NCBI GenBank assembly: GCA_015059045.1
Contig: SVBD01000008.1
Span: 9,355 to 73,354, forward strand
Reading direction: 5' to 3'
Source: Erysipelotrichaceae bacterium
GTDB lineage: Bacteria > Bacillota_I > Bacilli_A > RFN20 > CAG-449
DNA length: 64,000 nucleotides
Made by a program: the position numbers and the translations under genes. Position 1 is the first letter of the stretch. The number at the start of each line of letters is the position of its first letter. This document shows, piece by piece, positions 7,594 to 8,871 of the stretch. The notes beneath the pieces were generated by a model. It saw nothing but the letters and a program-made list of their open reading frames with translations. It searched no databases and had not been told where the DNA came from.

Positions 7594-8871
7594 ATGAACA
7601 ACAAGGTAGCACTATTAATATTATTAACTTTAACACTTTCTTCGTGCGATGTTATTAATAAAAATAATAACTCAAGCGAATCTTCTAGCGTAATAATTAG
7701 TAGTGAGGAATCTTCATGTTCTTCTTCAAAAGTAGATTACTCATCAATGAGCATTTTATCTCTTAATAGTGATTCTTGTTCTTCTGGTTTGTTTAAATAT
7801 TCAACAGGAAGTTTTGGTGATTTTTATCAAGGATATAGATTTGATTTTTATCGCGCATACAAAAAGAATAATGAACTTTTAAGATTACTCCCATATACAT
7901 CTATAAATAGTGTAGAAGGGCTTAATTCTGCTTTTTATAATAGAAATAAGATTGAAGGTATTAAAAGAATTGATATTTCTTATAGTACGGAAGGGAATAA
8001 TAGCAAACCTATATTAAAAATTGGTGAGACTCGTTTTTATAATCATGAAGTAGAATTAGAAATAAGTGAAGAAGTTACTACCTTCTCTTATGAAATTACA
8101 AATGATATTACAAGATATTTTTCACTAGAAACATCAAATACTTTATTATCTATTGTTTCCGTTGATATTTATTACTTAGACAATTTTTCTTATGGAGATG
8201 AAGATAAAAAAAGGGCTAATGAAGGTATTTATAGAATTAATTTAGAAACATTAAATAAGGAAGAATTAATTCCTGGAGTAAGTAAAGTTTCAGTGCCAAC
8301 AAGCATCAATGTCTTGGAAGGAAATTCTTATAGCATTAACAATACAAAAGAATATACGTATTATACATATGATTACATTTCAGAAAATCCATCTTTAGTA
8401 GATTCGTGTGCTTTAGTCAATCCAGAAGATGTTGCTAATTATTTTATTTCTTTTGGAACATATCCAGTTAATTATGTTACAAAAAAGAATTACTATAATG
8501 CATATGCTTTATTTGGTGAAAACACTAGATGTGTATCTCAATACTCTAGAACTGATGGTTACGCTACTTCTGTCCCTTATTTATCTGGAAGCGATAATAA
8601 ACCTTCTTATTATGAATGTGACATAGCTTTGGATAATACTTATTCATCATCAAATAGAGGTATTGGTAGACTTGTAGTTTGGGAATATGGATTTGATCAA
8701 AATAAGGGTGCAAAAGGATATTCATCATCTCCTGTTTGCGTATACACAGATGACCACTACGCTACATTTAAGGAATATATGAATTATGGAATTTTTGGAG
8801 AAGCATTTGATGCAGAAAGTGAAAGAAGTTATTCTCGCTGGTCTAATCCAATTACTCTTACATTAAAATAA
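7594..8871 (+). CDS. Lipoprotein with a C-terminal barnase-type (RNase N1/T1/Sa superfamily) ribonuclease domain
   Basis: Lipoprotein signal MNNKVALLILLTLTLSSC|D (alternative in-frame start at 7561). Ser-rich linker. C-terminal ~120 aa align with barnase: VANYFISFGTYPVNYVTKKNYYNAYALFG vs VADYLQTYHKLPDNYITKSEAQALGW; ECDIALDNTYSSSNRG vs EADINYTSGFRNSDR; YTDDHYATFKEY vs TTDHYQTFTKI. This conserves the catalytic E, R and H positions. Confidence 0.55.
   Translation: MNNKVALLILLTLTLSSCDVINKNNNSSESSSVIISSEESSCSSSKVDYSSMSILSLNSDSCSSGLFKYSTGSFGDFYQGYRFDFYRAYKKNNELLRLLPYTSINSVEGLNSAFYNRNKIEGIKRIDISYSTEGNNSKPILKIGETRFYNHEVELEISEEVTTFSYEITNDITRYFSLETSNTLLSIVSVDIYYLDNFSYGDEDKKRANEGIYRINLETLNKEELIPGVSKVSVPTSINVLEGNSYSINNTKEYTYYTYDYISENPSLVDSCALVNPEDVANYFISFGTYPVNYVTKKNYYNAYALFGENTRCVSQYSRTDGYATSVPYLSGSDNKPSYYECDIALDNTYSSSNRGIGRLVVWEYGFDQNKGAKGYSSSPVCVYTDDHYATFKEYMNYGIFGEAFDAESERSYSRWSNPITLTLK

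Follow-up and report, generated by a model that had tools for sequence, protein, structure and literature searches.

A divergent barnase-type ribonuclease domain in a predicted lipoprotein of an Erysipelotrichaceae bacterium, with no linked barstar gene

Gene and domain organization

We analyzed a 64,000-nucleotide stretch of contig SVBD01000008.1 from an uncultured gut or rumen Erysipelotrichaceae bacterium (the whole stretch is referred to below as the window), a low-GC chromosomal segment (GC ~29%) in which a gene at 7594..8871 on the + strand, stop codon included, encodes a predicted lipoprotein of 425 amino acids (aa) with a ribonuclease (RNase) domain in its C-terminal part. Under translation table 11 the open reading frame (ORF) spans 7561..8871 (+). 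We placed the start at ATG 7594, because a GGTGA-type ribosome-binding site precedes this codon and none lies ahead of 7561, because the homologues in the family alignment start at the equivalent Met, and because the NCBI record of the protein (MBE6132490.1, locus tag E7180_03750) also has 425 aa. This record is labelled "hypothetical protein", and the protein has no match in NCBIfam. In fact, the family comprises at least 128 protein clusters from uncultured Bacilli/Erysipelotrichaceae, all of them unnamed or "hypothetical". A hairpin like that of an intrinsic terminator, with a 14-bp stem and a T-run, lies at 7490..7521 (+), after the upstream endonuclease gene, which implies a separate transcription unit beginning with the RNase gene; no terminator-like site was found between this gene and the downstream aminotransferase gene.

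The N-terminus, MNNKVALLILLTLTLSSC, reads as a signal peptide (7594..7647, +) that ends in the lipobox L-S-S-C. Its layout is MNNK-VALLILLTLT-LSSC, it conforms to the pattern [LVI][ASTVI][GAS]C, and Cys18 (codon 7645-7647) is predicted to be the lipidated first residue of the mature protein. Cys occupies the lipobox column in at least 90% of the aligned homologues, and the pattern itself was detected in 47 of 64 homologues, several of the missed ones carrying variants such as LCSC or LCGC. Moreover, an Lgt gene (PF01790) is located near one relative's copy of the RNase gene, so the lipoprotein pathway exists in the group. The precursor would thus be exported through Sec and lipidated, as judged from its sequence.

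The signal peptide is followed by a Ser/Asn-rich low-complexity linker (residues 19-47; 7648..7734, +), which is predicted to be disordered from the predicted local distance difference test (pLDDT) values of AlphaFold 2 (AF2), these being below 50 for residues 17-44 of the full-length model. Next comes a β-sandwich accessory domain (residues ~48-200; 7735..8193, +), delimited in the full-length model (pLDDT 88.6). It belongs to no Pfam family, and a Foldseek search of the Protein Data Bank (PDB) gave a remote jelly-roll similarity to CBM29, CBM4 and the ephrin-receptor ligand-binding domain (E ~1e-5, template modeling (TM) score ~0.2 normalised to the query). When residues 48-257 were searched exhaustively by phmmer against 1.84 billion representative proteins, only 71 clusters were found, and in nearly all of them this N-terminal region stops ~170 residues before the C-terminus. 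The accessory region is therefore nearly always followed by the RNase domain, which marks the β-sandwich as a dedicated accessory module. Bigger family members also have Big_3 or collagen-repeat stalks. We considered whether the neighbouring endonuclease fusion shares a domain with the RNase protein and rejected this, since BLASTP of the β-sandwich domain against the fusion showed no similarity.

The RNase core (residues 273-395; 8410..8778, +), delimited by hhalign, Foldseek and residue conservation, is enclosed by two additions. The lineage-specific N-terminal extension (residues 201-272; 8194..8409, +), recognized in the family alignment and the AF2 model, has a conserved YR[IL]NP motif, a long β-hairpin and two short helices. 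The conserved C-terminal extension (residues 396-425; 8779..8868, +), which is seen in the family alignment and in both AF2 models, carries the motif FG..FNAE...W..P.TL that is not in barnase. Its residues 401-406 form a strand in both the full-length and the domain model. Strands 414-416 and 420-424 are present in the full-length model only, and they therefore probably pack against the N-terminal parts in that model. Two relatives have the extended RNase domain and no β-sandwich: in locus L016 (9545-10477) it stands behind a transmembrane anchor, and in locus L017 (8810-10432) behind a different N-terminal region that is OB-fold-like by eye only. The N-terminal extension is kept in both of them.

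Homology with barnase

A sequence-only reading of this DNA had proposed that the gene encodes a lipoprotein ending in a barnase-family RNase domain, and our searches bear this out, together with the lipobox described above. The protein alone matched PF00545 at E 0.0014 with 19.5 bits, which lies under the 24-bit gathering score, so that it does not reach the curated threshold. Independent matches to PF00545 at E ≤ 0.01 were obtained for 34 of 58 aligned family members, the best at 2.7e-6. A phmmer search of the PDB with the single protein found nothing and a family profile was needed; with this profile all 31 of the 31 PDB matches were barnase or binase-type RNases (best E 0.011). We then compared the C-terminal profile of the family with a classical barnase profile built from homologues at 62 genome loci, and hhalign aligned the two over 100 columns with a probability of 98.9% and an E-value of 1.7e-17.

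The structure prediction that had been suggested as a check agrees with these results. The AF2 model of the domain (residues 257-425) has a pLDDT of 94.9 and a predicted TM score of 0.90, and barnase (1bnf_B; probability 1.00, E 1.2e-3, TM score 0.67 normalised to barnase) is the one PDB structure that Foldseek matched to it with confidence, the runner-up having a probability of 0.06. We used the domain-only model for this comparison because weak β-sandwich matches dominate the search with the full-length model and mask the RNase domain. The model shows the α+β fold, with N-terminal helices on an antiparallel β-sheet. The similarity is far past chance, and residues ~273-395 are a divergent barnase-clade RNase domain.

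The hhalign mapping pairs K297 with K27 of barnase, E341 with E73, D343 with D75, R355 with R83, R359 with R87 and H388 with H102; the codons were checked for K297 (8482-8484), E341 (8614-8616), R355 (8656-8658), R359 (8668-8670) and H388 (8755-8757). The earlier alignment to three catalytic segments of barnase stands for the helix-1/K27 segment, for DDHYATF around the equivalent of H102, and for E341 and D343. Its middle segment had to be shifted: the ungapped alignment had put R355 on R87, and once a 4-residue insertion is allowed for, R355 corresponds to R83 and R359 to R87. E341, R355 and R359 are each found in 65/65 family members and H388 in 64/64, so that the general base Glu, the general acid His and the two phosphate-binding Arg that define catalysis in the PF00545 superfamily are all in place, while the K27 equivalent is Lys in 49/65 members. 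The RNase domains of the family are 43-83% identical. Such conservation of Glu, Arg, Arg and His would not be expected without catalytic selection, which suggests an active enzyme and not a relic.

The domain also departs from barnase in several ways. Its conserved unit has ~220 residues, against 110 in barnase. The 4-residue insertion, which includes an invariant Tyr350, lies in the E341-R355 loop (E73-R83 of barnase), and the β3-β4 hairpin is 14 residues longer than in barnase. The base-recognition loop, which in the PF00545 superfamily is a guanine-recognition loop of the F/Y-x-N-R/Y-E-G type, reads YSRTDGYATSVP here; it is longer and remodelled, and its alignment by hhalign to FSNREGKLP is ambiguous; within it G322 and Y323 are conserved in 65/65 members, R319 in 63/65 and D321 in 55/65. 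According to the same alignment, the loops that line the barstar-binding face of barnase are remodelled here, which may affect the binding of barstar. We also considered a Cys313-Cys342 disulfide that would make folding depend on the oxidising exterior. As a general feature it was rejected, for both Cys are present in 32/65 members only.

Distribution of barstar

We searched for barstar with a jackhmmer profile, its query sequence confirmed against the PDB, over the six-frame ORFs of the window and of 80 genome loci. The search thus covered 64 kb of sequence from this genome and, in the relatives, flanks of 10 kb. The loci fall into two sets: 18 with the extended RNase type (L001-L017 and L019, the family loci) and 62 with small, classical homologues (L018 and L020-L080). 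Homologues at L002 and L004 of the first set belong to Coprobacillus or Faecalibacillus, which are cultured relatives. The classical set is mostly from Clostridia, plus for example Solobacterium, and includes one Methanosphaera metagenome-assembled genome (L065).

As a result, no barstar match was obtained in the window, nor in any of the 18 extended-type loci, even at E ≤ 50 with filters off. With the same profile, barstar was found directly downstream in 57/62 of the classical homologues, and of the five classical loci without it two stop at a contig edge. This control agrees with the tight association of the widespread barnase-barstar pairs reported from comparative genomics (PMC3482391). 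PF01337 was likewise not found in the Pfam-annotated neighbourhoods of four further family members. The missing linked barstar is therefore a trait of the lineage (0/18 extended-type against 57/62 classical loci), and it follows the RNase subtype rather than the β-sandwich.

At least 35 of the classical proteins carry a lipobox, and lipid-anchored barnases are thus frequently encountered in sequence space. Most classical homologues from gut and rumen Clostridia have a lipobox or membrane anchor and then an acidic or Pro/Thr-rich linker. In locus L073, an unrelated 85-aa ORF (3476-3742) lies directly downstream of a classical barnase homologue that has no barstar, and it may encode an alternative immunity protein.

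The statement that no barstar-like gene lies nearby is thus upheld by the profile search and by Pfam. The proposal that small neighbouring ORFs might encode the inhibitor did not survive. Pfam scans of ten small ORFs in the window revealed neither barstar nor any other known immunity domain, and the spacers on either side of the RNase gene (110 bp and 67 bp) contain no ORF and leave no room for one. Moreover, in an all-against-all clustering of the ORFs within 6 kb at 19 loci, each neighbour was shared by 6 loci at most and no gene kept a fixed position. The idea that a conserved neighbour confers immunity was accordingly rejected, and no new immunity gene linked to the RNase gene is apparent.

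How anomalous the missing inhibitor is has to be judged in two parts. The absence is real, as the classical control indicates. The anomaly is smaller than it had been taken to be, since in Bacillus, too, no inhibitor gene adjoins the genes for barnase and binase, and an RNase-inhibitor operon was reported as a unique feature of balifase from B. licheniformis (PMC5021464). For binase, a natural inhibitor has yet to be found (PMC8837141).

Genomic neighborhood

The genes that flank the RNase gene had been read as an endonuclease gene and aspC, and both assignments proved sound. Upstream lies an Endonuclease I (PF04231) fusion of 837 aa with a signal peptide (4970..7483, +; Pfam Endonuclease_1, E 9e-35), and the downstream neighbour is a class I/II aminotransferase according to Pfam. 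NCBI lists the endonuclease fusion as "hypothetical", and ~550 aa at its C-terminus form an extension without annotation. Further upstream are a tRNA-Lys(CTT) at 4767-4842, a gene for uridine kinase (udk; 4095..4715, +), a nucleoside-salvage enzyme, and a gene for a 656-aa lipoprotein (895..2865, +) with the lipobox VVSC and an OB-fold nucleic-acid-binding domain. The window begins with the C-terminal part of an ORF that is cut by its edge (3..875, +). This part gave no match in Pfam, and its position matches that of a 456-aa SNase-domain (PF00565) protein in the relative L083. Taken together, positions 1-7483 hold a run of exported nucleic-acid-handling genes that looks like a nucleic-acid scavenging locus. 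At the other end of the window, from ~60270 to 64000, an ORF of more than 1243 aa has a lipoprotein signal, …LLAGFLLTLASCGN, at its start and runs past the window end.

The relative L083, represented by three contigs of identical gene content, has an RNase that is 52% identical. Its gene order is SNase, OB-fold protein, two small ORFs, udk, RNase, aminotransferase, flavin adenine dinucleotide (FAD) protein, UDG and onward, with ABC-transporter binding proteins upstream. The order in the window agrees with it from the OB-fold protein onward, and the position of udk beside the RNase gene is conserved. The Endonuclease I gene is absent at the matching position in L083 and seems for this reason to have been inserted between the tRNA-Lys and RNase genes.

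Discussion

We consider it probable that the protein is a surface-exposed, lipid-anchored endoribonuclease of the barnase type, which digests RNA outside the cell for nucleoside salvage and from which the cell is protected because the precursor is exported unfolded. The precursor would pass through Sec in unfolded form and be lipidated on Cys18, and the disordered Ser-rich linker would hold the protein away from the membrane. Barnase and RNase Sa cleave RNA by metal-independent transesterification with a 2',3'-cyclic phosphate intermediate. The residues are present here, and by analogy with the family Glu341, Arg355, Arg359 and His388 would cleave RNA in the same metal-independent manner. Extracellular RNA would then be broken down and its nucleosides taken up and salvaged, with a coupling to uridine kinase. 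Self-protection would come from the export of an unfolded precursor instead of a dedicated neighbouring inhibitor, perhaps aided by the lineage-specific extensions. We propose the salvage role because the gene sits among SNase-like, OB-fold and Endonuclease I genes and beside a uridine kinase gene; by the logic of the mycoplasma surface nucleases it would be the most likely one. The stable, housekeeping-like position of the gene is also in keeping with a surface RNase that has a nutritional role, and it speaks against a mobile toxin cassette.

Several points weigh against this proposal. The Pfam score of the protein is below the curated threshold (19.5 vs 24 bits), its RNase activity is deduced from sequence and model, and its base specificity is unreadable from the remodelled recognition loop. 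The neighbourhood varies outside close relatives in the 19-locus clustering, so that the evidence for a salvage context comes from the window and a single syntenic relative. The classical lipoprotein-type homologues, though exported, keep barstar, which makes it evident that export by itself does not suffice in every case. Finally, a barstar or another inhibitor may possibly be encoded elsewhere in the genome, of which the search covered 64 kb.

This last point leads to a rival explanation, in which an inhibitor encoded away from the RNase gene, be it a barstar homologue or some unrelated protein, neutralises the enzyme, the arrangement of barnase and barstar in Bacillus amyloliquefaciens; on this view the missing neighbour would be a trivial matter. 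Bacillus genes for barnase and binase provide a precedent for such an arrangement (PMC5021464), the equivalents of the barstar hot spots K27, R83, R87 and H102 are present in our protein, and the search covered 64 kb of the genome. If barstar were the partner, however, some linkage would be expected, and barstar was found within 10 kb at 0/18 diverse loci and in 0/4 Pfam neighbourhoods, against 57/62 classical loci. The loops on the barstar-binding face are remodelled as well, and the K27 equivalent is kept in 49/65 members only. We therefore regard an unlinked inhibitor as a serious candidate but an unlikely one. More doubtful still is the idea that this is a barnase lineage without barstar at all, in which the additions to the domain would make folding or activity dependent on export, or would occlude the active site of unexported protein, and so serve as a built-in substitute for immunity. 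The additions meant here, as seen in the models, are the hairpin extension with the YRINP motif, the C-terminal tail and, usually, the dedicated β-sandwich.

The two remaining explanations concern the role of the domain itself. A toxin directed at bacteria or the host, in the form of an RNase effector like those of polymorphic toxins and either displayed on the surface or released, would be in line with the frequent use of barnase-like domains as toxin modules and the wide occurrence of simple barnase-barstar pairs (PMC3482391), and the Big_3 or collagen repeats of larger family members resemble stalks. Polymorphic toxins are recognized by an N-terminal trafficking or stalk module, a variable C-terminal toxin domain and an adjacent immunity gene (PMC3482391), a combination that the family does not show. 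There is no adjacent immunity gene, the Pfam scans gave no WXG/LXG, RHS or filamentous-haemagglutinin trafficking domain, the RNase domain is conserved (43-83% identity) and not polymorphic, and its position between udk and the aminotransferase gene is syntenic in a relative that is 52% identical, all of which makes a toxin improbable. It is harder yet to believe that the domain, with its catalysis lost or weak, serves to bind RNA or nucleotides as a module of a surface adhesin, for which immunity would be needless. The Pfam score under the threshold, the remodelled recognition loop and the variable K27 equivalent would suit such a module, but the active-site Glu, the two Arg and the His are fully conserved in 65 sequences down to ~43% domain identity, and we give this explanation hardly any weight.

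Compared with known systems, the surface RNase proposed here has the α+β fold of barnase, binase and RNase Sa, the same order of helices and strands, the same Glu-Arg-Arg-His order in sequence and the common (T/G)DHY.TF motif around the catalytic His, and those proteins are exported enzymes too. It differs from them in its ~220-aa domain, the fusion with a β-sandwich, a lipid anchor rather than release, and the lack of a linked barstar. The simple barnase-barstar pairs of Clostridia (Zhang et al. 2012, PMC3482391) also come from gut and rumen Firmicutes, and mostly have a lipobox or membrane anchor, a low-complexity linker and a C-terminal barnase-type domain. Those proteins, however, have ~135-280 aa, a canonical core and barstar in 57/62 cases, whereas accessory domains and barstar in 0/18 loci characterize the present family. 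Balifase, which forms an operon with YrdF in B. licheniformis (PMC5021464), is likewise a secreted RNase of the barnase family and is linked to nutrient (phosphate) scavenging, but it is co-transcribed with a barstar orthologue, while the downstream gene in the window encodes an aminotransferase.

For function, we propose a likeness to the MnuA/SNase-type surface lipoproteins of mycoplasmas, lipid-anchored nucleases outside the low-GC, Bacillota-related cell whose part in nucleotide salvage is well documented (PMC11729948, PMC12115388). This likeness would be one of function and not of family, since folds and chemistry are unrelated: the mycoplasma enzymes are metal-dependent nucleases of the EEP or SNase type that act on DNA and RNA. 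To our knowledge, no immunity protein has been described for the mycoplasma surface lipoprotein nucleases.

The enzyme family is very well known, and the protein is one of its divergent variants, so far without annotation; in this respect the surprise is modest, and the interest would rise if the genomes prove free of barstar and the extensions prove to be a built-in safeguard. Whether cells can safely produce a barnase-type enzyme in the absence of barstar is a question for which the family offers a natural test, and binase poses it as well (PMC8837141). Annotation as surface barnase-type RNases can now be given to at least 128 "hypothetical" clusters from uncultured Bacilli of the gut and rumen. 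The finding also suggests that these poorly known and probably nucleotide-dependent bacteria draw on extracellular RNA for nutrients.

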